Assembly: GCA_947626065.1 (NCBI GenBank)
Contig: CANQQT010000005.1
Span: 12,252 to 76,251 of the forward strand
DNA length: 64,000 nt
DNA from: an uncultured Clostridia bacterium
GTDB lineage: Bacteria; Bacillota; Clostridia; Oscillospirales; CAG-272
Direction: 5' to 3'
In this document: piece after piece, positions 2,176 to 31,845 of the stretch
Numbering within the stretch: position 1 is the first letter of the stretch
How the letters are laid out: every line of letters starts with the position of its first letter
Notes under the pieces: model-generated
Database searches by the model: none
What the model was told of the DNA's origin: nothing
The model's input: the letters and a program-made list of their open reading frames with translations, nothing else
Translations under genes and position numbers: made by a program

Positions 2176-2250
2176 TGGAGGCGACATCCGGATTCGGACC
2201 GGAGAATAACGGTTTTGCAGACCGTGGCCTTACCACTTGGCTATGTCGCC
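2176..2250 (-). tRNA. tRNA-Cys (GCA)
   Basis: Reverse complement is GGCGACATAGCCAAGTGGTAAGGCCACGGTCTGCAAAACCGTTATTCTCCGGTCCGAATCCGGATGTCGCCTCCA. It folds as a cloverleaf with anticodon loop CTGCAAA and an encoded CCA. The T-loop reads TCCGAAT (see findings). Confidence 0.85.
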
Positions 2251-2279
2251 GAAAACAAACGCTCCCGACGAAGGGAGCG
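2251..2279 (-). terminator. Terminator-like hairpin between tRNA-Gly and tRNA-Cys
   Basis: Minus sense reads CGCTCCC-ttcgtc-GGGAGCG followed by TTTGTTTTC. Confidence 0.5.
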
Positions 2280-2287
2280 CCGTTTTT

Positions 2288-2363
2288 TGGAGCGGATTAC
2301 GGGGCTCGAACCCGCCACCTCCACCTTGGCAAGGTGGCGCTCTACCAAATGAGCTAAATCCGC
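2288..2363 (-). tRNA. tRNA-Gly (GCC)
   Basis: Reverse complement is GCGGATTTAGCTCATTTGGTAGAGCGCCACCTTGCCAAGGTGGAGGTGGCGGGTTCGAGCCCCGTAATCCGCTCCA. Anticodon loop TTGCCAA. Confidence 0.95.
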
Positions 2364-2426
2364 GAATCGTATGTACCGCGCTTTCGCAACGATACACACT
2401 TCATCACACACTGTTGCGTGCGACCA

Positions 2427-2502
2427 TGGTGCCTCCGGTCGGAATTGAACCAACGACACAAGGATTTTCAGTCCTCCGCTCTACCGACTGAGCTACAGAG
2501 GC
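2427..2502 (-). tRNA. tRNA-Phe (GAA)
   Basis: Reverse complement is GCCTCTGTAGCTCAGTCGGTAGAGCGGAGGACTGAAAATCCTTGTGTCGTTGGTTCAATTCCGACCGGAGGCACCA. Anticodon GAA. Confidence 0.95.
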
Positions 2503-2545
2503 ATACCGGCAGCCTGTCGGAGAACTTTTGACTGCCTGAGAAAAA

Positions 2546-2622
2546 TGGCGACCCGAAGGGGACTCGAACCCCTGACCTCTAGCGTGACAGGCTAGCGTTC
2601 TAACCAACTGAACTACCGGGCC
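2546..2622 (-). tRNA. tRNA-Asp (GTC)
   Basis: Reverse complement is GGCCCGGTAGTTCAGTTGGTTAGAACGCTAGCCTGTCACGCTAGAGGTCAGGGGTTCGAGTCCCCTTCGGGTCGCCA. Anticodon loop CTGTCAC. Confidence 0.95.
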
Positions 2623-2627
2623 GTATA

Positions 2628-2703
2628 TGGTGGGAACAATAGGGCTCGAACCTATGACCCTCTGCTTGTAAGGCAGATGCTCTCCCAGCTGAGCTATGCT
2701 CCC
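2628..2703 (-). tRNA. tRNA-Val (TAC)
   Basis: Reverse complement is GGGAGCATAGCTCAGCTGGGAGAGCATCTGCCTTACAAGCAGAGGGTCATAGGTTCGAGCCCTATTGTTCCCACCA. Anticodon loop CTTACAA. Confidence 0.95.
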
Positions 2704-13659: not shown

Positions 13660-14733
13660 TTAAATTCTTTCGAGAATTTTTTCCGTCATTTCGGTACAGC
13701 TCAGCGGCTTCACGTCGGAGCTTCCGAGGATATCCGCCGTCCGGAATCCCTCTCTCAGCACGCGGTCGACCGCCGCCTCAATCGCGTCGGCCTCGGTCAT
13801 CAGGTCGAGGGAGTAGCGGAGCATCATGGCCGCCGAGAGAATCGTCGCTATGGGGTTGGCGCGGTTCTGTCCGGCGATATCGGGGGCGGAGCCGTGAATC
13901 GGCTCATAGAGGCCGCACTTGCCGTCTCCGAGGGAGGCGGAAGGAAGCAAGCCGATGGAGCCGGTCACCTGCGACGCCTCATCCGAGAGAATATCCCCGA
14001 AAATGTTGGAGGTGACGATGACGTCGAACTGCGAAGGATTCTTCACAAGCTGCATGGCGGCGTTGTCGACCAGCATATCGGTCACCGTGACGTCGGGATA
14101 TTCCTCCGCCACCTTGTGAACCACTTCTCTCCAGAGTCGGGAGCTTTCAAGGATGTTGGCCTTGTCGATGCTCGTCACGCGGCGGCTTCTCTTTCTCGCG
14201 GTATTGAAGGCGACGCGGGCAATCCGCTCGATTTCGGCCACCGAATAGCACTCGGTGTCGTAGGCCTCCTGTCCCATTTTTCCTTCGCGGCGTCCCCGCT
14301 CTCCGAAGTAAATGCCACCCGTCAGCTCGCGGATCATCACAAGGTCAATGCCGCGTCCGGCAATATCGGCGCGAAGCGGGCATTCGGCTCTCAGGGAGTC
14401 GTAGAGCTTGGCCGGGCGGATGTTGGTGTAAAGGCCGAGGGCCGATCGCATACCGAGAAGCGCCCGTTCCGGGCGAAGATGGCCGGGGAGCGTATCCCAC
14501 TTCGGGCCTCCCACCGCACCGAGAAGCACGCTGTCGCTGGCGCGGCAACCCTCCACCGTCTCCTTCGGAAGGGGCTCCCCCGTCGCGTCGATGGCACAGC
14601 CTCCGGCAAGATAGGCGGTAAAGTCGAAGCTATGACCGTATTTTTCACCGATTTTGTTGAGAACCGAAACGGCGCTGTCGACAATTTCCGGTCCGATGCC
14701 GTCTCCCTTTAACAGTCCGATTTTAAAATTCAT
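13660..14733 (-). CDS. leuB: 3-isopropylmalate dehydrogenase
   Basis: 357 aa. Contains LKGDGIGPEI and NIFGDILSDEAS motifs. Confidence 0.95.
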   Translation of the reverse strand: MNFKIGLLKGDGIGPEIVDSAVSVLNKIGEKYGHSFDFTAYLAGGCAIDATGEPLPKETVEGCRASDSVLLGAVGGPKWDTLPGHLRPERALLGMRSALGLYTNIRPAKLYDSLRAECPLRADIAGRGIDLVMIRELTGGIYFGERGRREGKMGQEAYDTECYSVAEIERIARVAFNTARKRSRRVTSIDKANILESSRLWREVVHKVAEEYPDVTVTDMLVDNAAMQLVKNPSQFDVIVTSNIFGDILSDEASQVTGSIGLLPSASLGDGKCGLYEPIHGSAPDIAGQNRANPIATILSAAMMLRYSLDLMTEADAIEAAVDRVLREGFRTADILGSSDVKPLSCTEMTEKILERI

Positions 14734-14803
14734 AAAAATATCCTTCCTTTCGAGCCAGCCTCAAGGGCTGGGTCTGCCAGCCCGCACAGGATGGGACTTC
14801 CAA

Positions 14804-14919
14804 CCCTCGCAGGCCAGTTTTGAACGGCCCTCGCAGGCCGGGTTTGACGGCCTTACAGGCCGGTTTTGAACGGCCCTCGCACAGCCGGGGTTACCGGTCT
14901 CATGGGCCGGGTTTGACGG
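14804..14919. repeat. Five tandem 22-24 nt units in the leuD-leuB spacer
   Basis: Units start at 14804, 14828, 14851, 14874 and 14898. The consensus is CCCTCGCAGGCCGGTTTTGAACGG. More degenerate copies flank the array. Confidence 0.8.
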
Positions 14920-15014
14920 CTCCGCGTCTGTCGCGAGGCGCTTCCCGCCCAGCGGCAGATCCGAAAGCCGGTTTTGATAAAATCCGTCGCCCCACGATGC
15001 AAAGGGGCGCGTTT

Positions 15015-15509
15015 TCAGCGAATTTCGCCCTTCTTAATGGATTCAATCAGGCCGCCGTTTGCAATGATGGTCTGAATGAAGGCCGGGAAGGGCGCGGTTT
15101 TGAAGCTCTTCCCCGTCGTTTTGTCAAGGATAACGCCGTTATCCATGTCGGCCTCAAGGACGTCGCCCTCCGAAATGGCGTCGACGGCTTCGGGGCATTC
15201 GATGATCGGGAGGCCGATGTTGATGGCGTTCCGATAGAAGATGCGGGCGAAGCTCTTCGCGATGACAAGGGCAATGCCGCTCTCCTTGATGGCAATCGGC
15301 GCGTGCTCGCGGGAGGAGCCACAGCCGAAGTTCTCCCCGGCCACCATGATATCCCCGGCCTTCACGCGGGAGGTAAAGGTGGCGTCGAGATCCTCCATGC
15401 AGTGGGAAGCCAGCTCTTTTTTGTCGATGGTATTGAGATAGCGCGCCGGAATGATGACGTCGGTATCGACGTTGTTTCCGTATTTGATGACGTTTCCGTT
15501 GAATTTCAT
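15015..15509 (-). CDS. leuD: 3-isopropylmalate dehydratase small subunit
   Basis: 164 aa. Contains [14 protein letters not shown]. Confidence 0.95.
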
Positions 15510-15542
15510 AGCTCTTTCAACCTTTCTTTCGGAATCGGGGAC

Positions 15543-16802
15543 TCACAGCTTCCGCGGGTCGGAAATATATCCGGTGAGGGCAGAGGCGGCGGCGACCGCC
15601 GGGCTTGCCAGATACACCTCGGAGCCGGGATGGCCCATTCTTCCGACGAAATTGCGGTTTGTCGTGGCGACGGCCCGCTCTCCTTCGGCAAGGATTCCCA
15701 TATGTCCGCCGAGGCAGGGCCCGCAGGTCGGGGTGGAAACGACGGCTCCCGCCTCGACGAAGGATTTCAAAAGTCCCATTTCCATCGCTTCAAGGTAGAT
15801 TTTCTGCGTAGCGGGAATGACGATACAGCGCACGCCCTTTTTGACCTTTTTGCCTCTCAGAATCTTTTCGGCGATCACAAGATCCTCCAGCCGTCCGTTG
15901 GTGCAGGAGCCGATGACGACCTGATCGATCTTGATCTCCCCGACCTCTCCGATCGGATGGGTGTTTTCCGGCAGATGCGGGAAGGCGACCGTCGGCTCGA
16001 TTTTCGACAAATCGATTTCATAAACCGCCTCGTAAACGGCGTCCTCGTCCGCCCGATAAACCGTCGGCTCCTTCGCTCCCGCCTCCTTAAGGAAGGCAAG
16101 CGTTTTCTCGTCGACCTCGAAAATTCCGTTCTTTCCACCGGCCTCAATCGCCATGTTCGCCATGCAGAGGCGGTCGCTCACCGAGAGGTAACGGAGGCCG
16201 TCGCCGGTGAATTCCATCGACTTGTAGAGCGCTCCGCTGACGCCGATTTTCCCGATGATGTGAAGGATCACGTCCTTCCCGTAGACGCCCTCGGAGGGCT
16301 TCCCCGTGAGGACGAATTTCAGCGCCGGCGGCACCTTGAACCACGCCTTGCCGACCGCCATACCACAGGCCATATCGGTGGAACCGACGCCTGTCGAGAA
16401 GGCGCCGAGCGCTCCGTAGGTGCAGGTATGGGAATCGGCGCCGATGACGAGGTCTCCCGCCGTCACCAGTCCCTTTTCGGGGAGAATCGCGTGCTCCACG
16501 CCCATATCTCCGACGTCATAGTAATGCTCGATGTCCATTTCGGCGGCAAATTCGCGGCACATTTTGCACTGTCCCGCCGCCTTGATATCCTTGTTCGGGG
16601 TGAAATGGTCCATTACCATCGTCACCTTGCTTCTGTCGAACACGCGGTCGACCCCCAGCTTGGAAAACTCGCGAATCGCCACCGGCGAGGTGACGTCGTT
16701 CCCGAGGACCAGGTCAAGGTCGGCAAGAATCAACTGCCCCGCGCTTACGCTCGGCAGACCGGCGTGCTTCGCCAGAATCTTCTGCGTCATTGTCATGCCC
16801 AT
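15543..16802 (-). CDS. leuC: 3-isopropylmalate dehydratase large subunit
   Basis: Starts [15 protein letters not shown]. Contains [13 protein letters not shown] chose the start at ATG 16802, because the longer track ORF runs into cimA. Confidence 0.9.
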
Positions 16803-16881
16803 AATGTTCCCGTTTCTCCGGCTTTCAGTATTTTTCTGTTTTCCGCTTTTCCACCGCCGGACAGGAAAAGCGGCCCCGGCC

Positions 16882-18435
16882 TCACTTGCCGGAGAGGACG
16901 TATTCATAGGAGTCGACAAGCGCCATCATGCTGGCTTCGATGATGTCGCTTGACACCCCGATGGTGGTATAGGTGGTCTCGCCGTCGGAGCTGTCGATCA
17001 GAACCCTCGTGACGGCGCCGGTGCTCCCGGAATCGATGATCCGGACCTTGTAATCGACGAGCTTCGTCGACGCAAGCTGAGGATAAAAGACGAGGAGCGC
17101 GTTGCGGAGAGCCCGGTCAAGAGCGTTTACCGGCCCGTTTCCGCTGTCGCAGGTCATCTGCGTTTTTCCGTCGACCTCAATTTTGATGATGGCGTTTGAC
17201 TGCTGTTCCCCGTCGGGGGCAGGAAAATCGTCGGTGACCTTGTACATGATCAGATTGAAATGCGATTTCCAGAGGCCGAGGGCCTTTTTGACGAAGAGCT
17301 CAAAGCTCGACTCGGCGCCCTCGTACTGATAGCCGTGGAGCTCCCGCTCCTTCAGCATTTCGGTGATCGTCTTCGTCTTTTCCGACTGCTTCGTAAGCTC
17401 CGGGGCGTATTTCTGAATCTTGGGGAGAACCGTGCCCCGCCCGGCCACCTCGCTGAGGAGGAATTTCCGCTCGTTTCCCACCGCCTCGGGGTCGACGTGC
17501 TCGAAGGAGCGTGGGAGCTTCATCACCCCGTCGACGTGCATTCCCGCCTTGTGGGAAAAGGCACTTTTCCCTACGTAGGGCGTGCTTTTCGGGAGGCGGA
17601 CGTTGGAAATCTCGGCGATGTTCCTCGCCGTCTGCTTGAGGGTTTTCAGATCCACGCCGCTCTCCGCGCCGCATTTCAGCATCAGGTCGGGGATGATGAC
17701 CGAGAGATTGGCGTTACCGCACCGCTCCCCGTAGCCGATGAATGTTCCCTGCACGTGCCGGGCGCCGCTCTTTACCGCCATGACGGTATTGGCGACGGCG
17801 CAGCCGGTGTCGTCGTGGCAGTGGATGCCTATCCTTTGGCCCGGAAAGAGGCGGCAGACCTCCTCCACCGTCTCCGCAATGGCGTCGGGCATCATTCCGC
17901 CCTTGGTATCGCAGAGGCAGAGGCAATCGGCCCCGGCGTCGACCGCTGTACGCAGAACCGAGAGCGCGTAATCGCGGTTCTCCGAATAGCCGTCGAAGAA
18001 ATGCTCGGCGTCGAAAATCAGCTCCTTCCCGAGCGATTTCAGATACCGCACCGTGGAATCGACGATGGCGAGATTGTCCTCAAGCCGAATGCGCAGAATT
18101 TCGGTGACGTGAAGATCCCACGCCTTGCCGAAAATCACCACCGTATCGGTTCCCGCGCCGACAAGCGCGGCAAGGCCGGGATCCTCCTCCGGCCTTTGGC
18201 CGAAGCGGACGGTGCTCCCGAAGGCGCAGATTTTCGCATGGCGCAGAGTCATTCCCCGGATTTCCTCAAAGAAGAGCTGTTCCTTGGGATTGGAGGCGGG
18301 GTTGCCCGCCTCGATGTAATCGACACCGAAATCGTCCAGCGCCTTGACGATGTTGATACGGTCGCGGATCGAGAAGGAAATTCCCTCCGCCTGCGTGCCG
18401 TCCCGAAGGGTGGAATCAAACCATTCGATATTCAT
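16882..18435 (-). CDS. cimA: LeuA-family synthase of the citramalate-synthase type (CimA-like; 2-isopropylmalate synthase activity not excluded)
   Basis: 517 aa. Contains [26 protein letters not shown] and GERCGNANL. The length and N-terminal pattern resemble the roughly 520-530 aa citramalate synthase subgroup rather than classical LeuA. Confidence 0.75.
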
Positions 18436-18585
18436 GCTGTACTCCTTTCCCGCCGCCGTTTTAGAGCGGCGAAGAGGGGCGGCTGACCTGCCCGGCCAAC
18501 CGATGCCATATTTCCGTCACTGCCTGACAGCCGCGCAGGGCGCCCGGCGGAAAGCTCCGTCGGGGCCCCGACACGGCCTGCTTTC

Positions 18586-20247
18586 TCAGCGAACGATCGC
18601 GCCGAGATCCGCCGACGAAACGCTTTCGGCATACCTCTTGATGTATCCCTTCAGGTCGGTTTTCTTTTTGATTTCCGTCGTTTTTCTCCGCTCGGCCAGC
18701 TCCTCGGCGGAGACCTCAAGCTCGATGGAGTAATTCGGAATATCGATGGTAATCCGGTCGCCGTCTCTTACGTAGGCGATGGTGCCGCCGCAGACCGCCT
18801 CCGGCGAAACGTGGCCGATGGAGGCGCCTCTTGTCGCACCGGAAAATCTTCCGTCTGTAATCAGCGCCACCTCTTTATCAAGTCCCATGCCGCAGATGGC
18901 GGAGGTCGGGGAGAGCATCTCCCGCATTCCCGGGCCGCCCGCCGGGCCCTCGTAGCGGATGACCACCACGTCGCCGCTCTTGATTTTTCCGCCGTAGATG
19001 GCGGCGATGGCCTCCTCCTCGCTGTCGAAGACGCGGGCCGGGCCGCTGTGTCTCAGCATTTCCGGCGCGACCGCGCTTCTCTTCACAACGGCGCCGTTCT
19101 CGGCAAGAGAGCCGAAGAGGACGGCGAGTCCTCCCGTCGGCGAATAGGGATTCTCATAGTCGCGGATCACTTCGTTTCCACGCTTTTCGCATCCGGCGAT
19201 ATTCTCCCCTACCGTCTTTCCCGTCACGGTTTTCAGCGAAAGGTCGAGCTTTCCGTGCTTCGCGAGCTCGTTCATCACGGCATAGACGCCGCCGACCTCG
19301 TTCAGCTCCTGCACGTGGTGCTGTCCCGCCGGGGCCAGATGGCAGAGGTTCGGCGTCGCCTCGCTGATGGCGTTGACCTCCCGGAGGTTGAGTGTCACCC
19401 CGGCTTCGTGGGCAATCGCCGTCAGATGGAGCAGGGAGTTTGAGGAACAGCCGAGCGCCATATCGACGGTCAGGGCGTTGACGAAGGCCTTTTCGGTGAG
19501 AATGTCCAGCGGGCGGAGGTTCTCCCTCACAAGGTCGACGGCACGGGCCCCCGCCTGCTTGGCAAGACGGAGCCGGGCCGCGTAGACGGCGGGAATCGTT
19601 CCGTTCCCGCGAAGCGCCATGCCGAGAACCTCGGTCAGGCAGTTCATGGAATTGGCGGTGAACATTCCGGAGCAGGAACCGCAACCGGGGCAGGCGTTCT
19701 CCTCGTAGTAGTTCAGCCGCTCCCCGTCCATCGTCCCGTTCTTATAGGCGCCGACCGCCTCGAAGACGCTGTTCAGATCCATCGCCTCTCCCCGGTCGGA
19801 GCGGAGAGAAAGCATCGGCCCTCCCGAGATGAAGATGGAAGGAAGGTTCAGCCTTGCCGCCGCCATCAGCATTCCCGGCACAATCTTGTCGCAGTTGGGA
19901 ATGAAAACCAGCCCGTCAAAGCCGTGGGCCTTGGCCATGCATTCGATGCTGTCGGCGATCACCTCGCGGGAGGAGAGGGAGTATTTCATTCCCTCATGCC
20001 CCATCGCGATACCGTCGCAAACCCCGATGACGTTGAATTCCATCGGCGTTCCGCCGTTCGACAGGACGCCGTCCTTGGCGGCTCTGGCGATCGACTGAAG
20101 GTGGATGTGGCCGGGGATAACCTCGTTGAAGGAATTAACAATTCCGATAAGAGGCCGGGCAATCTGCTCCTCCGTATAGCCCATCGCCTTCAGCAGTGAG
20201 CGCTGCGGGGCCCTCTCGGGGCCTTTTTTGATGTTGTCGCTTCTCAT
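18586..20247 (-). CDS. ilvD: Dihydroxy-acid dehydratase
   Basis: Starts [24 protein letters not shown]. Contains [13 protein letters not shown] 20247 is preferred over the upstream TTG because it is preceded by AAGGA. Confidence 0.95.
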
Positions 20248-20276
20248 ACCCTGAATTCCTTTCAAAAATCCGAAAA

Positions 20277-21326
<1,050 letters not shown>

Positions 21327-21824
21327 TTATGAATTTGTCAGGCTTTTCGTCCCCCGGTCGAGGGACACAGTGCCTGTTCTGCACAGTTCAAGAATGCCGT
21401 ACTGCTTCATCAGCTCGATAAACGCCTCGATTTTCGAGGTCTCGCCGGTCGCCTCGATGCAGAGCGACTCGGGGGAGAAATCGATGATCTTGTTGCGGAA
21501 AATGTTCACGGCGTCGATGATTTCCTGCCGGTTCGCGGAGGAGGCGGAAACCTTGAGCAGGATCAGCTCCCGCGAGACGATGCTCTCGGGAATCATCTCC
21601 CGGACGACGAGGACGTCGTGGAGCTTTTCGAGCTGCTTCACAATCTGATCCCGGTCATAATCCTCTCCCGTCATGGTAATCGTCATCCGGGAGCGGGTGG
21701 GATCCTCCGTCACGCCGACCTCAAGGCTGTCGATGTTAAAGCCGCGTCGGGCAAACATTCCGGAAATTCTTGTCAGGACGCCCGACTGGTTGACGACCAG
21801 CATTCCGATGGTATATTTTCTCAT
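21327..21824 (-). CDS. ilvN: Acetolactate synthase small (regulatory, ACT-domain) subunit
   Basis: 165 aa. Contains LVVNQSGVLTRISGMFARRGFNIDSL. Confidence 0.9.
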   Translation of the reverse strand: MRKYTIGMLVVNQSGVLTRISGMFARRGFNIDSLEVGVTEDPTRSRMTITMTGEDYDRDQIVKQLEKLHDVLVVREMIPESIVSRELILLKVSASSANRQEIIDAVNIFRNKIIDFSPESLCIEATGETSKIEAFIELMKQYGILELCRTGTVSLDRGTKSLTNS

Positions 21825-21837
21825 TTTCGGTCCCCTT

Positions 21838-23493
21838 TCAGCGAATCACAAGGTCGTTTACCGTGCCCCCCGGAGGGATCATCGGAAGCACGCGCTCGTC
21901 GCGGTCGATCAGGCAGTCGATCACCACCGTGCCGTCGGAGGCAAAGGCCTTTGTCAAGGCCGCATTCAGCTCCTCCTCCGAGGACGCCCGGAAGCCGACC
22001 GCCCCGAAGGCCTCCGCCAGCTTGACGAAATCGGTCTTTCTGTTCAGCACCGTTTCGGAATAGTGGCGGTCGTAGAACATCGTCTGCCACTGCCGCACCA
22101 TCCCCAGAACGCCGTTGTTCATAATCAGAATCACAAGAGGCAGGTTCTGCGAAACGGCGGTGGCAAGCTCGTTCAGATTCATGCCGAAGCTCCCGTCCCC
22201 GGTGATGAGAACCGCCCGGCGGCAAGAGCCGATCGAAGCGCCGATGGCGGCGCCGAGGCCGAAGCCCATCGTACCGAGACCGCCGCTTGAAATGAAGGTG
22301 CGCGGCTTCTCGAAGCGGTAGCGCTGAGCCGTCCACATCTGATGCTGTCCAACGTCGGTGGCAACCGGCGTGTCGGCGTCGGTGAAGCGGTTGACGGCGT
22401 CGATGATGCGGTAGGGGGTAAAGCCCTCGTCCTGCTTCGCCTTGTTTTCCTCTTCATAACGGCGGATGGCGGAAATTTCCTCCCACCACGCGGGGCGGCG
22501 AACCGTCGGAGCCTCTTTCAGAAGCGTGGCGAGGACGTCCTTCACGTTGCCGACGATGCCGAGATCGACGGTAATGTTCTTGTCAATCTCCGCCGAATCG
22601 ACGTCGACGTGAATGATTTTGGCGTTTTTCAGATATTCGTTCTTGTTTCCGGTCGCCCGGTCGCTGAACCGGACGCCGACGGCGATCACAAGGTCAGCGC
22701 GGGACTTGGCCACCGTGGCGGTATAGATGCCGTGCATTCCGACCATGCCGAGCTTGCGCGGGGAGGAGGCCGGAACCGCCGAGAGACCCATCAGGCTGGT
22801 ACCGATCGGGCAGTCGAGAGCCTCGGCAAGTGCCGCCAGCTCCTTTTCGGCTCCCGCCGTCACGACGCCGCCGCCGCAGTAGATGTAGGGCTTCTCCGAT
22901 GCCCGCATCATCTCCCCGGCCTTTGCGATCTGTTCCTCCCCGTAGCGGTTCCGAATGACCGCCTCCGACACAGGAGCGGGGACAAAGTCGCATTCCGCCG
23001 TCTGAACGTCCTTCGGGATATCGACGAGAACCGGGCCGGGACGGCCGGATTTGGCAATCCGGAAGGCCTCCCGGATGGTGTCGGCGAGCTTCGTCACGTC
23101 CTTGACGATGTAATTGTGCTTGACAATCGGCATGGTAATGCCAGTGATATCGACCTCCTGAAAGCTGTCCCTGCCGATCAGACCGCAGGGGACGTTCCCG
23201 GTGAGAAAAACCATCGGGACGGAGTCGAGGTAGGCGTTGGCGATGCCGGTGACCAAATTGGTCGCGCCGGGGCCGGAGGTCGCCATTACGACGCCGACCT
23301 TTCCCGTCGCTCTTGCATAGCCGTCTCCCGCGTGGGCCGCTCCCTGCTCATGTGCCGTCAGCACATGGCGGATGCGGTGAGAATTTTTGTACAGCTCATC
23401 GTAAAGATTGAGAACCTGTCCGCCGGGATATCCGAAAACGACTTCGGTTTTCTGTTCGATGAGGGTTTCGATTACAATCTGTGCTCCTGTCAT
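21838..23493 (-). CDS. ilvB: Acetolactate synthase large subunit
   Basis: Starts MTGAQIVIETLIEQKTEVVFGYPGG. Contains the GGLGTMGFGLGAAIGA ThDP motif. Start at ATG 23493 with an AAAGGGAAGG RBS. Confidence 0.95.
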   Translation of the reverse strand: MTGAQIVIETLIEQKTEVVFGYPGGQVLNLYDELYKNSHRIRHVLTAHEQGAAHAGDGYARATGKVGVVMATSGPGATNLVTGIANAYLDSVPMVFLTGNVPCGLIGRDSFQEVDITGITMPIVKHNYIVKDVTKLADTIREAFRIAKSGRPGPVLVDIPKDVQTAECDFVPAPVSEAVIRNRYGEEQIAKAGEMMRASEKPYIYCGGGVVTAGAEKELAALAEALDCPIGTSLMGLSAVPASSPRKLGMVGMHGIYTATVAKSRADLVIAVGVRFSDRATGNKNEYLKNAKIIHVDVDSAEIDKNITVDLGIVGNVKDVLATLLKEAPTVRRPAWWEEISAIRRYEEENKAKQDEGFTPYRIIDAVNRFTDADTPVATDVGQHQMWTAQRYRFEKPRTFISSGGLGTMGFGLGAAIGASIGSCRRAVLITGDGSFGMNLNELATAVSQNLPLVILIMNNGVLGMVRQWQTMFYDRHYSETVLNRKTDFVKLAEAFGAVGFRASSEEELNAALTKAFASDGTVVIDCLIDRDERVLPMIPPGGTVNDLVIR

Positions 23494-23536
23494 ACCGACC
23501 TTCCCTTTCTGTTTGCCAAAAATCAAAACTGTAACG

Positions 23537-23573
23537 TAAAAAGAGCCTACGGCTATCCTCTGCCATAGGCTCT
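23537..23573 (-). terminator. Leader (attenuator) terminator upstream of ilvB
   Basis: Minus sense reads AGAGCCTATGGC-agaggata-GCCGTAGGCTCT (12 bp including one G-U pair) followed by a U-run, about 45 nt before the ilvB ATG. Confidence 0.75.
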
Positions 23574-23631
23574 GTTGAAGTCATGCTGAACCGCCGCGAC
23601 CATTTTCCGCGAACCGATTGGCTGGGGCGGT

Positions 23632-23760
23632 TTATTTTTCTTCCAAAGCGCTCTGAGCAGGACGAATAGCACTATTACTGCCGGAAACCTCTACTAGGCC
23701 CGATACAATAATAGTGCAAATAATCGCGATCCGGTTTTCAGATGCCTTCGGCGAATACAT
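23632..23760 (-). CDS. Candidate 42-codon ilv leader peptide (Ile-rich)
   Basis: GGAG, then 9 nt, then ATG at 23760. The peptide is MYSPKASENRIAIICTIIVSGLVEVSGSNSAIRPAQSALEEK with stop TAA at 23634..23632. Codons 11-19 are ATC GCG ATT ATT TGC ACT ATT ATT GTA. Confidence 0.55.
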   Translation of the reverse strand: MYSPKASENRIAIICTIIVSGLVEVSGSNSAIRPAQSALEEK

Positions 23761-23793
23761 ACTTTTTAGCTCCGATCTTCGGGATTGTCTTAA

Positions 23794-23822
23794 ATTTTAT
23801 CACTTCCCGGGGCACTTGTCAA
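23794..23822 (-). promoter_or_regulatory. Promoter of the ilv-cimA-leu operon
   Basis: Minus strand reads TTGACA, then 17 nt, then TAAAAT (-35 at 23817..23822, -10 at 23794..23799). Confidence 0.75.
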
Positions 23823-23952
23823 CATTTTTTTGGAACATTTTTTATTTTTTGTTTATCTGCACATCCGACCTCCAGGATACCGCCCGATTTTATTCAAATT
23901 CACCACGCTTTTCGCCTCCCGACACTTTTTTGAAGATTTTTGTAAAAAAGGT

Positions 23953-23981
23953 TTGAAATTTCGGAGAAGATGGTGTATAAT
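23953..23981 (+). promoter_or_regulatory. Promoter of the small Cys-rich protein gene
   Basis: TTGAAA, then 17 nt, then TATAAT. It is divergent from the ilv promoter. Confidence 0.7.
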
Positions 23982-24022
23982 AGAAGGAGACCACTTCGAC
24001 CAACGGAAGGAGGTGCTTTTCC

Positions 24023-24244
24023 GTGTTTGGCAAGGAAAAAAACACCGTACCGGATCTGCCCTGCGTCTGTGAATTCTGCGAGCACGCGGCGCTGATTCAC
24101 GACGAATACAATGTTCTCTGCGAATTTCGCGGAATCGTCAACCGGGAATACCACTGCAAAAAATACGTTTACGATCCCCTCAAGAGGGTTCCCAAAGCCA
24201 TGCCTCCCCTTCCGAAGCTCTCGGAGGAGGATCTGCTTCTCTGA
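24023..24244 (+). CDS. Small (73 aa) Cys-rich hypothetical protein
   Basis: GTG start with GGAAGGAGG 7 nt upstream and its own consensus-like promoter. Contains a C-x-C-x2-C cluster plus two more Cys. I do not recognise a family. Confidence 0.6.
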   Translation: MFGKEKNTVPDLPCVCEFCEHAALIHDEYNVLCEFRGIVNREYHCKKYVYDPLKRVPKAMPPLPKLSEEDLLL

Positions 24245-24489
24245 TCGGCGCTTCGCCGGGCGAGGTGAGGCACGAAGAACCGCGCGAAAACCACCGGACT
24301 TCTTTCAAAATCCCGTTTGCTTTACGTAAAATACAGAAAACCGCCGCTTTCATTTAAAAATCCCGCTTTTTTAAGCCCCGCTTTCATTCCTTGAAAACAG
24401 GGCTTTTTTGCATACGGATTTTCTTTGAAAGCGGGATTCTTTGAAAACGCTTTTCTAAAAGTCAGGGCCTTTGACGGCCCGTTTTCCCG

Positions 24490-25572: not shown

Positions 25573-28500
25573 TCAGCGCCCCGCGCGTTTCTTAATCCGG
25601 TCGGCTACCGCCGCAAGTCCTACGACGCTGAGAAGCGCGGTGAGGATTGCAGGAAGAACGCCGATTCCCTTCTCTCCGGTGTCGGGAGATCCGGAATCCT
25701 TGGCCTTGTAGACGTAGGTCACTTCCACGTCGCCGTTCATCGTGCCCTTGGCTTCGCCCACTACGTGATCCAGCTTGTAGCCCTTGACGGTCGCGGCCTC
25801 GGTCTGATACGGATCGCCCGCGTTGACCTTCGTCACTACCGTGTCGGCAATCTGCTGATTGTTGGTATCCACGAAACGGACGGTGAGGGTATACTGCACG
25901 TGCTTGTAGACGAAGACGATTTCGGTATCTCCGTCCACCGTGCCGGTCGCCGCCGCGCCCTCGGCGTGGTCGTAAACGTAGTTGGCCACGTTAATGGGAG
26001 TCGCCTCGTAAGCGTCTCCGGCCTTCACGGTCTGCGTCTTCGGGTCGGCGATGTCCTTGCCGGCCTCGTCCACGTAACGGACGGTGAGGGTGTACGGGAT
26101 GCTCTTGTAGACGAAAATCACTTCGGCGTCGGCTTCAAGCGTACCGGTGGTCGGTGCGCCTTCGGCGTGGTCGTAGGTGTAGTGCGGAATCGTGTACGGC
26201 AGAGCCTGATAGGACTCTCCGACCTTCAGGGTCTTCACCGTCGGCTCGACGATGTCGTTTCCTTCCTCGTCCACGTACCGGATCGTGAGGTCATACTCCA
26301 CGGTCAGGCCGGTGAGGGTGATATCCACGTCTTCGGTGCTCAGCGGCTTGCCGCTCTTGTTGCCGTCCTCGGTGGTTTCTACCGTGAGGGTGGTGGTGTA
26401 GTCCTCGTTGATCTTCGGCTCGTAGCTGAACACGGCGTTCATGACCACTTCGTTCATGGTCTCGGCGTCAGCGTAGCCCGCATGGATGGAGCCTGCGTCA
26501 AAGGGCTCCTCCGCGCTGGACAGCACCGCCGTCGTTTCCAACCGCAGGAAGGTGAGCACCGACGGATCGTATTTCAGAACGAAGTCGCCGTTTGTGCTTT
26601 CCTTGGCGCGGATCGGAACGATCACGGTCTTGGTTTCGGGATCGACAAGGACGCTGTCGCTGGGATTGGGCTGAACCTGTACCTCAATAGAGTTCAGGCT
26701 TCCCGCCGTCGTGCCGGGTTTGACGGTCACGGCGGGTTTGGCCGTGGCGGAGGCGTTTTCTCCGATTTCCACCGTGGTTACGGCGGCCGGATTCTTCAGC
26801 GACTTCGCGCCGACGGCGTGCGTAGTGCTTCCCGCACTGCTTCCCGTACCGCTTCCGTCATCGCCGGTGATGGGCTCTCCGGCGTCAACGGCGAAGAGAC
26901 AAGCCGGCCAAACGTCTGCTGCGGTCTGGTCAAGCGCATAGGCGCTGTAATAGGGGTCTCCGCCGTTTTTGCTCTCGGTGTATCTCAGCTGATACAGATA
27001 GGCGCAGTTGTACCCCTTAAAGGAGAGGTAGGGATTGCCGTCGTTTCCGACAACCATCGAGCAGTAAGGCTCGCCCCCTTTAGGGTAAGCGCCGAGGGCT
27101 CCCAGCGTGGTTTCATAGCGCTCGTACATCAATCCGTACATCTCGTATTCGTCGTCCCAGTAGATGTAGAACTTCCAGAGGGTACCCGCGGTGTCGAAGG
27201 AGTAGAGGCAGACGTCTCCGCCGACCATCACGCCGTCTTCTCTCTCAGCCTGCCATTCTTCGTCAACAGCTGCGACGGTGAGCAGCCACATTTCGTCCTC
27301 ACCGATGGCATCGGCAATCTGCCAAGCCACGCTCTGGAATCCGTCGGGCTGATAGGGGCCGAAGAGGTTTCCGGCGTTGACGGCGAAGATGCCGACCTTC
27401 GAGCTTGCGATATCCCACATGATACCGGGGCCGTTGCCCTTCCAGTTCCAAGGGCCGTCCACCGGGGTTCCGTCGGCGGCAAACTCATAGAGCATACCGG
27501 TGGTGTCGGTGAGATAGTAGTGATCACTTCCGTACTTCTGCGTAGCGTTGACCGGGTTGGTGGCCAGCGCGACGCCGGTTTCGATGGTACGATTTCCGAA
27601 GTCCCATTTGAAGAGACGCGGAACGTAATCGTTGTCGCTGAGGATACCGGTGGCGGTTCCGGGGATGATGTAGACGGTGACGTCAACGGTCGCCTCCACC
27701 TCGTTGTTCATGTTGGAAATCGCCCGGAGGGTGGTGTGGCCGATCGATTTTGCGGTGACAAGGCCGTTTGCGCTCACGGTGGCGATGTCGTCATTGTCCG
27801 ACTTCCAGGTGATGCTGCGGTCGTCGAGCTCCGCCGGATGGGCGATGGCCTTGAGGGAAGCGGTAGTGTCGGTCAGCATGGCCAGCTCATCAACGGGAAT
27901 GTGGTACGGCACACCGGCATCGCTTCCCACTTGGTAAATTTCCACCGATTCCACATCTTCCGGCGCGCACAGTTTATCCACATCGCAGAAGAAACGGTAG
28001 TGTGTAAAGTTGCCAGCATAGTCTACGGCTGTCAAAACATATACGCCGGCGAAGTCACCGTAAGGATACCCATAGTCATCGAATAACCACTTATCTTTCG
28101 GAAGATACTCAAACGAAAGGTATTGATCCATCCACACTTCCGAACCCGGGCCGTACTGTTCAACAAGCGGCCCCCTGTCCATCGGAGAAATGGGAATCCA
28201 TTCGCTGTCCAGATCGTCGTTGAGGTGCAAAATCACATTACTGATGTACTGATTGTCCTGAACTCCGTAGAGAAGTTCAAGGACTTCATAATCCGGCCAA
28301 CCAGAGACATAGGCACCCTCATAGTCGTCATATAAGAATTCCGGAGGCGTCAGGTCCACGGTGAAGGTGGTTGAGAGGTAAGCACCCTTGCCAAGCTCGC
28401 CGTTGTCAAGGTCTCCGTCGGTCAGGGCGTCCCAATTGTAGTTTCCGTCCTCATCGGCGTAGTACTCAGGAGCCATGATCAGGGAGAGCTTGATTTTGTC

Positions 28501-31500
28501 TCCTTCTTTCAGAGGTTCCCCTTCGTAGTCGGTGATCGTCCAGTCGATCGGAACGGTGCTGACGGTGTTGAACCATCCGCCGCTGGAGCCCGGCACGTAA
28601 TAGGCGCCGTCCTCCGCCGACAGCTCTTGACGGTAATAGACGGTTTTGCCGTCCTCGCTGGTCACCTGAATCACTCCGGCACCGGCGTTGCGAATCAGCG
28701 CGTAGTGGTAGTATTCCAGACGCATATTGCCGGAGATGGCGTTGCGCTCGGGATAGTAGGTGAAATAGCCGTAATCATCAACGTCAATATCCTGCGGATT
28801 TCCGTAGTAGGGGTAGAGCTCGCTGTGGTCGTCGAGGGCGAGGCTGATATCGAAATAGTTGTAGACAGCGGAACTCCAACCTTCGTCGCCACCGTTTATG
28901 TTAGAGTTGCCCAAGTAGGGGGTACGGGTGTCGCCGGTTCCGGTGTCATGCTCGATCATCGAGCCGACGTCGTACATCGAAGCGTCCGTCCAGTTGCCGT
29001 AGAAGCCCAGCACCGGGATGCTCAGCTCCGGAGGAATCGCGCCGTCATCGGAGGCCAGAGGGTTGGCAAGGAGGAAGGCCTCGATATACGCGCCGTTGGG
29101 ATAACTCTGAGAAATGGTTTGTCTGTCCTGCTCAGACAGGGTGATCGTGACCTTGACTTCGGTCTCGCCGTTTGCGGGAACCTCCGCGCAGGTACGGTCC
29201 TTGGTCAGAAGAATGTGCACGTCGTGGGTATCGACGTCGCCGTCCTCATCCACGTCCATATCCTCTGTGCAGTGGGTGATTTCGGTGCCTTGGATCACGT
29301 AATCCAGCAGGAGCTGGGCGTCCTTGCGGTTGAATTCGCCGTCGCCGTCAAAGTCGTAACGCAACAGGGAATCGTCGCCCACCGGCTTGCCGTCGATCAG
29401 GAAGACCACGTCGGGGGAGAGGTTCGCCGTATACTGCATCAGGTTCTGACCCCGCACGGCCTGCGTGAAGACCGCCGCGTCGAGATCGTAGTACTGTGTG
29501 ACGGAGGAGAGGTTGTGGAGCGTGAAGGTGATCTCGTACTTTCCAACCTTCTTGATATCGTCGCCGAGCTCTACCTTGACCTTGCCGTCCTCCTGTCCCT
29601 TGACGGTGATATACACCGGGGAGGAGATGGCCGCGTCAACGTTGGCAAGGCCGGCGCCCTGTTGGATGACCGGATAGTACCGACCGCTTGCGTCCTTCAT
29701 GGGCTTCGCGGTGCTCATCATCAGCGACTGGGTCAGGCCCCGGACGTTTAAGTCCTTGGCTTTGACTCCCTGATCGCGCAGGTACTGCTGAATCAGCGCG
29801 ACCATACCGGTGATCTGGGGAGCGGCCATCGAGGTTCCGCTCATGGTCTCATAGCTGGAGCCGTCGGGAGCAAGGCCGTTGACGGAATAGATGTTTCCGC
29901 CGGGGGCGGTGATCTCAGGCTTCAGGCTGAGGTCGCCGGGGGCGCCCCAGCTCGAGAAATCGCTCATGGTGTAGGAGCTACTTGAAGTGTAGTCCACCTC
30001 GGCGGGGGTAGCGCGGAAGGTGATCGTACCGGAGTTGATCTCCGCCGGTATGCCGCCGTTGTCGTAACAATATTGCAGAATGGCCAGACCGACGCTGTTC
30101 TGCACGGTCGCCACCGGGATGTGGCCGGTATAGCCGGTAAGGTCGGCAATGATGTTGCTGTTTTCGTAGTTGACGATAATCACGCCGACAGCGCCGAGCT
30201 CCTCGGCCATCTGTACCTTGTGGAGCATCGAGGTGGGTGTCTTTTCATCGATCATACCGCCGCGCCAGCAGATGACGATGTTGCCCTTGGCTTTGCTTCC
30301 GAGGGCCGCGAACATTTTATCCTCGGTGCCGGGAGCGGTACCTTCGTTGACGGTTCCGGGCTGGAGGATGTAGAAGGTATAGTCGGTTCCCTGTCCGCCG
30401 TTCTTATCAAGCGTGGCGAGATGGGGGTTGCCGTAGGAGGTGTCCTCAAGGTAACGGTACTTGTTCCCGTTGACGGTGAACTTCATACCGACGGTTCCCT
30501 GATTTTCTACCGACGCAACGGTGAGGGAATTGCCGTAGCTTCCCGGCTCGCCGCCGGTGTGGAAGTTGACGCCGTCGGAATAGAGGTTTTTGGGAGCGGA
30601 GGAATCGGCCCACGCGCCGGAGTTACCTGCCGAGATGACGACGACAGTCTCGCTGTCGACCAGCGATTTCATCAGGTTGTCGTAGTAAAGGTTCGGGGTG
30701 GACATACCGGGGTTGGAGCCGCCGAGGGAGAGGTTGACGGCGTCGGCCTTCAGCCAGATGGCGTCCTCAATCGCGGCCACGCAGTCGGAGTCGTAAGCAC
30801 CGCCGCCCTTACCGAAGACCTTCATGACCAGAATCTGAGCGTCGGGGGCGTTTCCGACGACCTTCACGGTTTCGAGGGCGTCCTCATAGACGCCGTCCTT
30901 GTCGGAATCGATCAGACGGTTGGCCGCCGCGATACCGGCGACGTGAGAGCCGTGCTCGCTCTGGTTGTCGTTGTCGTGAGTGACGTCGAAGGAATAGTCT
31001 ACGTAGTTATAGCCGAAAGGAACCTTGGCGTTTTTGTAGACCTGCTCGATCTGCTCGGCGGTGACGCCGCGCGTGGCGATGTTCAGCTTGTCCAGAACGT
31101 CGAGGACGTCCTGCGCCTGCATCAGCTGAGCCGTCTTTCCGGTCTTGGTCTCCCAGCGGGAGATCGATTCCAGAAACGCCTCGGGGGCAAAGGACTGGTG
31201 GTCGGTGTCAAGGCCGGTGTCGATGATGGCAATACGGCTTCCCGCTCCGGTATATCCGGCTTCCCAAGCCACATCCGCGGAGTTCATGCCCTCGGATACC
31301 GCCATGTTGGGCACTTTCTCCTCGCTTACCTCCGTCTTATCGGGGGTATACTGCCGTTCCTCCACGACCTGCTCGACGCCGGGAAGCTTCTCGATGTCGG
31401 AAATCAGACCGCGGCGGATGTTGACAGAGATCACGTTGGCGGCAACCGTCAGGTTCCACACCACGTCCAGCTTACCGCCGGACAGGACTTCTTCTTCAAT

Positions 31501-31845
31501 ATCGCCGATGAGCGCGTTCTGCCTGTTGAGCAAAACGTCGCGGTAAGCGATCGCCTGGACGTTGTCCGCGATGTTGTCCGCGGAGTATCCGGCCTCAAGA
31601 AGAGAGTCGGAATCCAGAACGATGGACGCCCGCACGATCTCGTTGGGATCCTTGTCCAGCTTGGAGCCGGAATCCCTTGAGGGGGTCGTGGAGCTTCCGG
31701 AGGATTCCACTGTTTCCAGACGGAATCCGTGTGCAAAAAGCAAGCCTTCGATTGCCGCGTTCAGAACAATGCCCGTCGCCATGACCAGCGTCATCAGCAG
31801 GGCGAGTCCGCGCCGCATCCAGGTCTTGCGCCGTGAATGTGCCAT
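25573..31845 (-). CDS. Cell-envelope subtilisin-family (S8) serine protease, 2090 aa, wall-anchored multidomain
   Basis: N-terminal signal/TM segment. Catalytic residues are D209 (AIIDTG), H298 (EHGSHVAG), N408 (SAGNSG) and S672 (SGTSMAAP). A PA-like insert lies between His/Asn and Ser. There is a dockerin-like EF-hand pair at aa 831-880, a Big_2-like segment, three MucBP-like repeats, and a C-terminal SPDTG-TM-KKRAGR tail. Confidence 0.9.
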   Translation of the reverse strand: MAHSRRKTWMRRGLALLMTLVMATGIVLNAAIEGLLFAHGFRLETVESSGSSTTPSRDSGSKLDKDPNEIVRASIVLDSDSLLEAGYSADNIADNVQAIAYRDVLLNRQNALIGDIEEEVLSGGKLDVVWNLTVAANVISVNIRRGLISDIEKLPGVEQVVEERQYTPDKTEVSEEKVPNMAVSEGMNSADVAWEAGYTGAGSRIAIIDTGLDTDHQSFAPEAFLESISRWETKTGKTAQLMQAQDVLDVLDKLNIATRGVTAEQIEQVYKNAKVPFGYNYVDYSFDVTHDNDNQSEHGSHVAGIAAANRLIDSDKDGVYEDALETVKVVGNAPDAQILVMKVFGKGGGAYDSDCVAAIEDAIWLKADAVNLSLGGSNPGMSTPNLYYDNLMKSLVDSETVVVISAGNSGAWADSSAPKNLYSDGVNFHTGGEPGSYGNSLTVASVENQGTVGMKFTVNGNKYRYLEDTSYGNPHLATLDKNGGQGTDYTFYILQPGTVNEGTAPGTEDKMFAALGSKAKGNIVICWRGGMIDEKTPTSMLHKVQMAEELGAVGVIIVNYENSNIIADLTGYTGHIPVATVQNSVGLAILQYCYDNGGIPAEINSGTITFRATPAEVDYTSSSSYTMSDFSSWGAPGDLSLKPEITAPGGNIYSVNGLAPDGSSYETMSGTSMAAPQITGMVALIQQYLRDQGVKAKDLNVRGLTQSLMMSTAKPMKDASGRYYPVIQQGAGLANVDAAISSPVYITVKGQEDGKVKVELGDDIKKVGKYEITFTLHNLSSVTQYYDLDAAVFTQAVRGQNLMQYTANLSPDVVFLIDGKPVGDDSLLRYDFDGDGEFNRKDAQLLLDYVIQGTEITHCTEDMDVDEDGDVDTHDVHILLTKDRTCAEVPANGETEVKVTITLSEQDRQTISQSYPNGAYIEAFLLANPLASDDGAIPPELSIPVLGFYGNWTDASMYDVGSMIEHDTGTGDTRTPYLGNSNINGGDEGWSSAVYNYFDISLALDDHSELYPYYGNPQDIDVDDYGYFTYYPERNAISGNMRLEYYHYALIRNAGAGVIQVTSEDGKTVYYRQELSAEDGAYYVPGSSGGWFNTVSTVPIDWTITDYEGEPLKEGDKIKLSLIMAPEYYADEDGNYNWDALTDGDLDNGELGKGAYLSTTFTVDLTPPEFLYDDYEGAYVSGWPDYEVLELLYGVQDNQYISNVILHLNDDLDSEWIPISPMDRGPLVEQYGPGSEVWMDQYLSFEYLPKDKWLFDDYGYPYGDFAGVYVLTAVDYAGNFTHYRFFCDVDKLCAPEDVESVEIYQVGSDAGVPYHIPVDELAMLTDTTASLKAIAHPAELDDRSITWKSDNDDIATVSANGLVTAKSIGHTTLRAISNMNNEVEATVDVTVYIIPGTATGILSDNDYVPRLFKWDFGNRTIETGVALATNPVNATQKYGSDHYYLTDTTGMLYEFAADGTPVDGPWNWKGNGPGIMWDIASSKVGIFAVNAGNLFGPYQPDGFQSVAWQIADAIGEDEMWLLTVAAVDEEWQAEREDGVMVGGDVCLYSFDTAGTLWKFYIYWDDEYEMYGLMYERYETTLGALGAYPKGGEPYCSMVVGNDGNPYLSFKGYNCAYLYQLRYTESKNGGDPYYSAYALDQTAADVWPACLFAVDAGEPITGDDGSGTGSSAGSTTHAVGAKSLKNPAAVTTVEIGENASATAKPAVTVKPGTTAGSLNSIEVQVQPNPSDSVLVDPETKTVIVPIRAKESTNGDFVLKYDPSVLTFLRLETTAVLSSAEEPFDAGSIHAGYADAETMNEVVMNAVFSYEPKINEDYTTTLTVETTEDGNKSGKPLSTEDVDITLTGLTVEYDLTIRYVDEEGNDIVEPTVKTLKVGESYQALPYTIPHYTYDHAEGAPTTGTLEADAEVIFVYKSIPYTLTVRYVDEAGKDIADPKTQTVKAGDAYEATPINVANYVYDHAEGAAATGTVDGDTEIVFVYKHVQYTLTVRFVDTNNQQIADTVVTKVNAGDPYQTEAATVKGYKLDHVVGEAKGTMNGDVEVTYVYKAKDSGSPDTGEKGIGVLPAILTALLSVVGLAAVADRIKKRAGR
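25699..26298 (-). repeat. Three tandem 66-67 aa MucBP-like repeats within the protease
   Basis: The pattern Y(D/T)LT(I/V)R(Y/F)VD...G(E/D).Y......(Y)..DH..G...G......E(V/I).(F/Y)VYK occurs three times. Confidence 0.75.

Follow-up and report, generated by a model that had tools for sequence, protein, structure and literature searches.

A probable ribosome-mediated attenuator upstream of the ilvBNCD-cimA-leuCDB operon in an uncultured Clostridia bacterium

How does an uncultured Clostridia bacterium match the expression of its branched-chain amino acid (BCAA) operon to the supply of the amino acids that the operon makes? We asked this of a stretch of 64,000 nucleotides (nt) from contig CANQQT010000005.1 (assembly GCA_947626065.1), called the window throughout, in which a short open reading frame (ORF) and an intrinsic terminator stand before an operon that begins with ilvB. 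An earlier note, made from the letters of the sequence, had proposed that this leader senses the charging of tRNA-Ile through ribosome stalling. Our analysis makes it very probable that ilvBNCD-cimA-leuCDB is controlled by transcription attenuation of the trp/ilvGMEDA type, with this leader acting as a ribosome-mediated (leader-peptide) attenuator. As judged from the sequence and from comparison with relatives, the leader has the expected parts, these parts are conserved, three helices covary, and the competing helices are mutually exclusive. All coordinates below are window positions, and promoter, leader and operon all lie on the minus strand (-).

The leader-ilv transcript is predicted to start from a sigma-70-type promoter (23794..23822), in which TTGACA at -35 (23822-23817) is separated by a 17-nt spacer from TAAAAT at -10 (23799-23794). 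The -10 element is extended (TG-n-TAAAAT), an A/T-rich stretch lies upstream, and the site scores 11/12. A promoter scan of 23300-24300 returned two sites over both strands, against 0.7 expected, and this is the one on the minus strand; the same arrangement, TTGACA...TGTGATAAAAT, is also present in relatives. A Shine-Dalgarno (SD) sequence, GGAG (23770..23773), lies 9 nt before the ATG at 23760. This ATG opens the leader ORF (23632..23760), which has 42 codons plus TAA (23634-23632) and encodes MYSPKASENRIAIICTIIVSGLVEVSGSNSAIRPAQSALEEK. Promoter, SD sequence and ORF are thus as first described, except that GGAG had been placed ~27 nt downstream of the promoter; it lies ~20 nt after the -10 element, and it is the ATG that lies ~27 nt from the likely transcription start. 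The intrinsic terminator (23538..23573) begins 58 nt past the leader stop codon. Its 12-bp stem (23573-23542; 7 G-C pairs) is formed by AGAGCCUAUGGC and GCCGUAGGCUCU around the 8-nt loop AGAGGAUA and is followed by UUUU, with a predicted energy of -21.7 kcal/mol. The adjoining TTTTT (23542-23538) shares its first T with the stem as the final stem base, and 44 nt separate the end of the U-run from the ilvB ATG (23493); the earlier estimates of ~60 and ~45 nt were close.

The operon itself (13660..23493) reads ilvB-ilvN-ilvC-ilvD-cimA-leuC-putative leuD-leuB, with NCBIfam equivalog matches above cut-off for seven genes. The first gene (23493-21838) is ilvB, as had been supposed (TIGR00118, 720 bits), and cimA encodes citramalate synthase (TIGR00977, 628 bits). 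A 164-codon ORF (15509-15015) is taken as the putative leuD on the basis of the ORF list and its position before leuB. Together its genes provide the whole citramalate route to the keto-acid precursor of Ile.

Is this arrangement conserved? Homologous leaders in 13 relatives keep the promoter, the SD sequence, the frame and the Ile/Leu/Val run; 12 of them precede ilvB, the exception being locus L107. Twelve relatives were retrieved by the identity of their ilvB protein (71-82%), without reference to the leader, the closer ones being drawn from a protein collection and their contigs. Homology of the leaders was recovered by nhmmer at E values of 1e-20 to 1e-51, and the branched-chain run, for which conservation had been put forward as a check, is kept in every close relative retrieved. 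Locus L081 belongs to the same species and differs at 3 nucleotides; L082-L093 are distinct. The alignment used below (A1) comprises 14 distinct leaders. Among the listed matches of a scan of species-representative genomes with the ilvB protein, one clear leader relative was found, L001 (ilvB 73% identical), in which promoter, SD sequence, Ile/Leu/Val-rich ORF and hairpin are the same and the terminator is similar. BLASTN of the leader against 80 ilvB loci of GTDB species representatives gave noise only, and the homology of L001 was recognised by reading. A pattern scan of metagenomes returned 21 matches, of which three are real (L107, and L110 and L111, which are L082-like duplicates); the remainder are attributed to chance, at about the number expected in advance. 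In L107 the family member (MRTALFTAYILLINAIIILLIGGHRINSAICRVVK; 698-890, minus strand) precedes an HMGL-like gene of the isopropylmalate/citramalate synthase family, not ilvB.

We then considered the leader ORF as coding sequence. Codons 11-25 (23686..23730) form the putative regulatory region and read I A I I C T I I V S G L V E V; within it, codons 11-19 (23730-23704) are ATC GCG ATT ATT TGC ACT ATT ATT GTA, giving the 5 Ile and 1 Val counted in the earlier note. Across the 14 leaders, the fraction of Ile, Leu and Val in codons 8-26 is 0.47-0.68 in frame (0.47 in the window) versus 0.16-0.42 and 0.05-0.11 in the other two frames. The three residues interchange among homologues (IIVII, LIVVV, LLVIL and others) while their sum stays high. 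MFSL at the N-terminus is conserved although its codons change synonymously (TTT TCT TTG versus TTC TCA TTA). The SD sequence and ATG are at the same place in 14/14 leaders, with GGAG or GGAGA at the equivalent position in the aligned homologues. The frame from the ATG to a downstream motif (segment 2a, described below) is identical in 12/14, in all of which the ORF reads through the motif; the exceptions are L091 and L093, whose ORFs end before or inside it. In alignment A1, gaps between this motif and the upstream segment 1 come in multiples of 3, the same two leaders alone having single-base insertions. The frame, the triplet gaps, the synonymy in MFSL and the exchange of Ile, Val and Leu suggest that the leader ORF is translated.

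Which amino acids would such a leader read? The window copy contains 6 Ile, 3 Val and 2 Leu codons, whereas relatives reach 8 Leu or 7 Val. The family as a whole would therefore sense a mix of Ile, Val and Leu, and the window copy alone is Ile-dominated. Homologous leaders and covarying helices support the attenuator design of the original proposal; its restriction to tRNA-Ile does not extend to the family, whose codons are an Ile/Val/Leu mix. The Ile-weighted leader is consistent with an operon that makes Ile via citramalate, and the cimA match agrees with the fit suggested earlier, the link between the two remaining inferential. The leader also favours minor codons: ATT accounts for 5/6 of its Ile codons versus 36% in the operon genes, GTA for 2/3 of its Val codons versus 5%, and CTA occurs once versus 0/250 Leu codons of the operon genes. 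These minor codons could sharpen sensitivity or simply reflect structural constraints.

Do the leader and terminator contain the alternative helices of an attenuator? The predicted fold of the leader is far more stable than those of shuffled sequences (z = -5.4), and RNAalifold run blind on A1 gives exactly two structures, the terminator (3:4) and a 12-bp hairpin (1:2) in which GCACTATTATTG (23717-23706) pairs with CAGTAATAGTGC (23680-23669). Segment 1, the 5' arm of this hairpin (23706..23717; GCACUAUUAUUG), consists of codons 15-19. Segment 2a, the 3' arm (23669..23680; CAGUAAUAGUGC), would serve with it as the anti-antiterminator and possibly as a pause hairpin (-22.8 kcal/mol). What had been described as an AT-rich island is indeed a codon run, and it is also the 5' arm of this hairpin, which the first reading missed. 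The Ile codons thus double as structure, as the classical attenuator model requires of segment 1. In the alignment, 90.2% of cells in the 1:2 helix are paired versus 23-73% in slid controls, with AU/GC/GU and UA/CG/UG exchanges. In the terminator 98.7% of cells are paired, both partners have changed in 7/11 pairs, and none of 500 shuffles scores as high. The sequences in A1 are related to one another, so the shuffle statistics here and below overstate independence and are not probabilities.

A third helix, also missed in the first reading, connects these two. Immediately 3' of the 1:2 hairpin, the core GCUAUNNGU (segment 2b) pairs with the apex of the terminator, NNNNAUAGC. This 2b:3 core is paired in 86.3% of cells versus 21-52% in slid controls; 8 cells carry changes in both partners, no shuffle out of 500 scores as high, and the sixth pair appears as CG, GC, UA or UG across the leaders. 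Segment 2b with its extension (23640..23670; GCUAUUCGUCCUGCUCAGAGCGCUUUGGAAG), which lies inside the leader ORF, is the putative 5' strand of an antiterminator. Its 3' strand, segment 3 (23552..23580; CUUCAACAGAGCCUAUGGCAGAGGAUAGC), runs from the flank through the terminator 5' arm and loop into the 3' arm, of which it takes in the first 2 nt. In the window the two strands can form an interrupted helix of ~25 bp (23670-23640 with 23580-23552) that spans the whole terminator 5' arm, with a duplex energy of -25.3 kcal/mol versus -13.8 +/- 3.1 for shuffles (2/500). When the core pairing is kept constant, complementarity in the extension exceeds that of shuffles in 14/14 leaders (z -0.9 to -3.6, mean -1.95). 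Between the two strands lies a further hairpin, H (23589..23632; AACCGCC...GGCGGUU, -16.7 kcal/mol), which is predicted to cap the antiterminator helix and to persist in the terminated fold; a hairpin of variable sequence is found at this position in every homologue.

Two other pairings were noted. In the free window RNA, the region of codons 10-14 (23733-23718) can pair with 23605-23588, the 3' half of hairpin H, lengthening the 1:2 stem; by eye this helix is partly conserved in L082 and L083 (CGCGA/UCGCG versus UGUCA/UGACG), and it might reinforce termination when the leader is untranslated. A pairing of the terminator 5' arm with codons 2-8 (23756-23738, -18.6 kcal/mol) was rejected as the antiterminator, since this stretch is unconserved and would mostly lie under a stalled ribosome or be taken up by trailing ones.

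The two halves of the leader ORF behave differently. The peptide motif G-[ND]-S-A-[IM]-S-R coincides with a nucleotide block, RATAGYGCTATNNGTYNTG, that L091 and L093 preserve, though out of frame. Likewise, RATAGYGCTAT (segment 2a) persists in these two leaders, whose ORF ends before or inside the motif, which argues that it is an element at the RNA level. By this comparison, the 5' half of the ORF appears to act as coding sequence and the 3' half as RNA. As an alternative, the ORF might encode a small hydrophobic (membrane) peptide that has a function and a terminator of its own, ilvB being expressed independently. The peptide is hydrophobic, its N-terminus (MFSL) and core are conserved, and gene callers annotate it as a gene of 30-39 residues on three contigs. 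However, what L091 and L093 preserve of the C-terminal GNSAISR is its nucleotide sequence and not the peptide. The length varies as well, and across the 14 leaders the stop codon falls between -7 and +36 nt of the conserved motif at segment 2b. A search with the 42-residue peptide found no homologues in a collection of 5.8 billion proteins. The covarying 2:3 pairing ties the ORF to the terminator loop, and the element precedes ilvB in 12/13 relatives, with a gene for an HMGL-like synthase following it in L107. The promoter scan found no second minus-strand site in the 44 nt between terminator and ilvB or elsewhere in 23300-24300. We therefore consider a free-standing small peptide very unlikely.

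Could the leader belong to a known family of RNA sensors? At gathering score, Rfam 15 matched five tRNAs only in the whole window, and cmscan of 23400-24000 against 4227 Rfam families at E<=10 gave only chance-level matches to SNORD41 and Qrr. No T-box (RF00230), ykkC/guanosine tetraphosphate (ppGpp) riboswitch, other riboswitch or amino-acid leader family matched the leader at E<=10; the earlier note, which by eye had seen no T-box core or Stem I motifs, had named a significant T-box or riboswitch match as a refutation. Rfam holds amino-acid operon leader entries for Leu, Thr, His and Trp; by analogy the present leader would work like these, but it is no sequence relative of them.

The Bacillus subtilis ilv-leu operon is controlled by a T-box that binds tRNA-Leu, and terminator read-through when tRNA charging is low is a property that it would share with the present leader. 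It senses tRNA by direct RNA-tRNA contact without translation. A degenerate T-box of this kind is suggested by position, as T-boxes lie directly upstream of ilvB in more distant loci of related lineages (L008 724-955, L014 2671-2915 and L015 2523-2758; ilvB 56-61% identical). RF00230 scores 94-129 bits on the T-boxes at these and other ilvB loci, so its failure to match this leader, at gathering score or at E<=10, is meaningful. No Stem I or T-box sequence is apparent in the leader, and its conserved helices are unlike T-box architecture; the T-box explanation is effectively refuted. T-boxes were also seen further upstream of ilvB in L004, L007, L011, L013 and L018.

Eight loci carry an upstream ORF (uORF) of unrelated sequence that is rich in Ile, Leu and Val (30-37 codons) and is followed in each case by a strong terminator just before ilvB: L004 2762-2872, L005 2792-2890, L006 892-1005, L010 99-209, L011 2761-2868, L016 2830-2925, L017 2808-2909 and L022 2716-2820. 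In most of them the last AUU, AUC or GUC codons form the 5' arm of a hairpin. This design occurs in Oribacterium sinus, an uncultured Christensenella, several Clostridia metagenome-assembled genomes and Oligosphaera (Oligosphaera ethanolica).

A riboswitch that binds a metabolite or ppGpp, or a leader RNA that binds a protein, was weighed in the same way. Here the helices would be the aptamer or binding site, the ORF would be incidental and the terminator would be the expression platform. The leader is unusually structured, as its z score indicates, and the nucleotide blocks GCRCTATT and RATAGYGCTAT are strongly conserved, even outside the ORF in L091 and L093. In addition, ppGpp riboswitches have been reported to control ilvB in Firmicutes (PMC10272879). 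Nevertheless, the conserved blocks are fully explained as arms of 1:2, 2:3 and 3:4, and no conserved unpaired junction or bulge of the ligand-pocket type was seen. The poorly conserved 5' half keeps the SD sequence, the ATG, the frame, the triplet gaps and an Ile/Leu/Val run with changing codons, all of which a riboswitch would not need. Together with the negative Rfam result, these observations leave a binding RNA with little probability.

We next asked whether fold predictions would show the switching expected of an attenuator. A stalled ribosome was mimicked by masking segment 1 and cutting the transcript before the 3' arm of the terminator. The minimum-free-energy fold of this stall mimic is the long 2:3 helix in 13/14 leaders, with 5-10 nt of the terminator 5' arm engaged in it. 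For the 2b:3 core, 9/14 leaders give a probability of <=0.11 in free RNA (0.03 in the window), and 11/14 give 0.83-1.0 once segment 1 is masked (0.91 in the window). In full-length folds, plain or ribosome-masked, the terminator forms in every case. The antiterminator is therefore invisible in such folds, and truncated transcripts and relatives were required to reveal it. The mutually exclusive antiterminator and terminator helices for which folding had been recommended are thus present and covarying, with the antiterminator escaping the plain minimum-free-energy fold.

How would the leader work? The response of stalling and of termination or read-through to amino-acid supply is our inference from these parts. 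Transcription would start near 23787, and a ribosome would begin to translate the leader ORF of 42 codons. A shortage of charged tRNA-Ile (and Val or Leu) would make it stall on codons 13-23, on or just past segment 1 (23717-23706); stalling at I13, I14, I17, I18, V19 and probably L22 and V23 would leave segment 1 covered and segment 2 free. The freed GCUAU (23670-23666) could then pair with AUAGC (23556-23552) in the emerging terminator loop, and the helix would zip over the terminator 5' arm to give the 2:3 antiterminator (23670-23640 with 23580-23552). With the terminator blocked, RNA polymerase would read into ilvB. When charged tRNA is plentiful, the ribosome would cross segment 2 to the stop codon and the very stable 1:2 hairpin (-22.8 kcal/mol) would re-form behind it. 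This hairpin would block the antiterminator, allowing 3:4 to form (23573-23542 plus the U-run) and transcription to stop at ~23538, 44 nt before ilvB. Without translation, 1:2 and 3:4 would both form, again giving termination. The position of the stop codon, -7 to +36 nt from 2b, implies that a translating or terminating ribosome would pass over or sit on the antiterminator strand.

Several observations weigh against an attenuator of this kind. The terminator wins all folds of the complete transcript, whatever is masked. Because it always wins thermodynamically, the switch would have to be kinetic, as in trp, whose leader switch is kinetic; a kinetic switch is presumed here. The 1:2 and 2:3 helices share an overlap of 2 nt only. 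The 2b:3 core is fairly probable in free RNA (0.55-0.78) in 4-5/14 leaders, and masking brought no rise in its probability in 3/14 (L083, L085 and L107). A ribosome positioned at the stop codon of the window leader masks just the distal third of the antiterminator strand and leaves the GCUAU core exposed, so that termination in plenty would depend on 1:2 re-forming. Finally, the phylogenetic relatedness of the sequences means that shuffle counts overstate independence, and the pattern by which L107, L110 and L111 were retrieved already assumed the 1:2 motif.

Might the leader be more than a passive codon counter? The conservation of MFSL and of a rare-codon core (GUA CUA CUA) suggests that the nascent peptide or specific rare tRNAs might contribute to stalling, and an antiterminator that seizes the terminator loop before the 5' arm could represent a distinct kinetic design. 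We regard such an extended role as improbable.

Leader peptides rich in BCAA and followed by terminators are classical in enterobacteria. The ilvL and ivbL leaders of Escherichia coli and Salmonella combine an Ile/Val/Leu-rich ORF, 1:2, 2:3 and 3:4 helices and a terminator before the first ilv gene with multivalent stalling. The present leader resembles those of ilvGMEDA (ilvL) and ilvBN (ivbL) in its short Ile/Val/Leu-rich ORF, its alternative helices and the terminator before the first ilv gene. In contrast to them, it lies in a Clostridia-type host, shows no sequence similarity, precedes an operon that includes cimA and leuCDB, and is Ile-dominated in the window copy; its antiterminator would also nucleate in the terminator loop.

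Closer in taxonomy is the attenuator of Staphylococcus aureus ilvD, in which a 26-residue Ile/Leu-rich peptide is followed by a terminator hairpin ~52 nt past the stop codon (Kaiser et al. 2018, PMC5794164). For that leader a T-box was considered and rejected, and leader mutations relieve repression (PMC5794164). Both are Firmicute BCAA operons with an Ile/Leu-rich leader peptide and a terminator after the stop codon. The two are unrelated in sequence, and the S. aureus attenuator is backed by genetic evidence, whereas the present leader is known from sequence comparison. The antiterminators differ too: that of ilvD is proposed to pair with the poly-U tail, leaving the terminator stem intact, whereas here the terminator loop and 5' arm would be sequestered. 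Attenuators with BCAA leader peptides have been predicted in Lactococcus, Streptococcus and Corynebacterium (PMC10272879, PMC5794164), and the Corynebacterium ilvB-II, ilvB-OMG and Leptospira ilvB motifs were recently re-read as BCAA-rich uORF attenuators with terminator stems (PMC10272879; PMC8632094). Those motifs share with the present family a conserved RNA upstream of ilvB with a BCAA-rich uORF, but the taxa and helices differ. The conserved strings of the present family are absent from the published ilvB-OMG alignment, a GC-rich set taken for the most part from reads and scaffolds of marine metagenomes; to the eye, the two sets of sequences are unrelated. The mechanism is thus an ordinary one, BCAA leader-peptide attenuators being already known in Firmicutes; the leader represents a new sequence family and no new mechanism.

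The surroundings of the leader were also surveyed. A divergent 73-codon ORF (24023-24244, plus strand) without a Pfam match has a promoter-like TTGAAA-17-TATAAT (11/12) at 23953-23981 (plus strand), and in nine relatives (L081-L088 and L093) an opposite-strand gene of 71-74 residues occupies the same position upstream of the leader. A search for a CodY box gave at best a 3-mismatch match at 23924-23938 on the plus strand (ACTTTTTTGAAGATT), ~100 nt upstream of the -35 element and between the two divergent promoters, which is unconvincing; the window holds 5 such 3-mismatch matches versus 1.55 expected. Further away lie a 2090-codon ORF upstream of the leader region (25573-31845, minus strand) and a cluster of five tRNA genes (2179-2703, minus strand; Rfam, 63-70 bits).

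What does the leader mean for these bacteria? It gives a well-supported regulatory annotation to a BCAA operon of an uncultured Clostridia-type (Eubacteriales/Oscillospiraceae-like) lineage in metagenome assemblies, and it connects a leader weighted towards Ile with an operon whose Ile synthesis goes via citramalate. The leader family, with 14 distinct members and no Rfam 15 match, could become a covariance model for genome annotation. In related bacteria either a T-box or a BCAA-rich leader peptide stands before ilvB, which shows how readily two sensors of tRNA charging swap. Should the leader prove to be more than a codon counter, this alternation would offer a natural system in which the two sensors can be compared.

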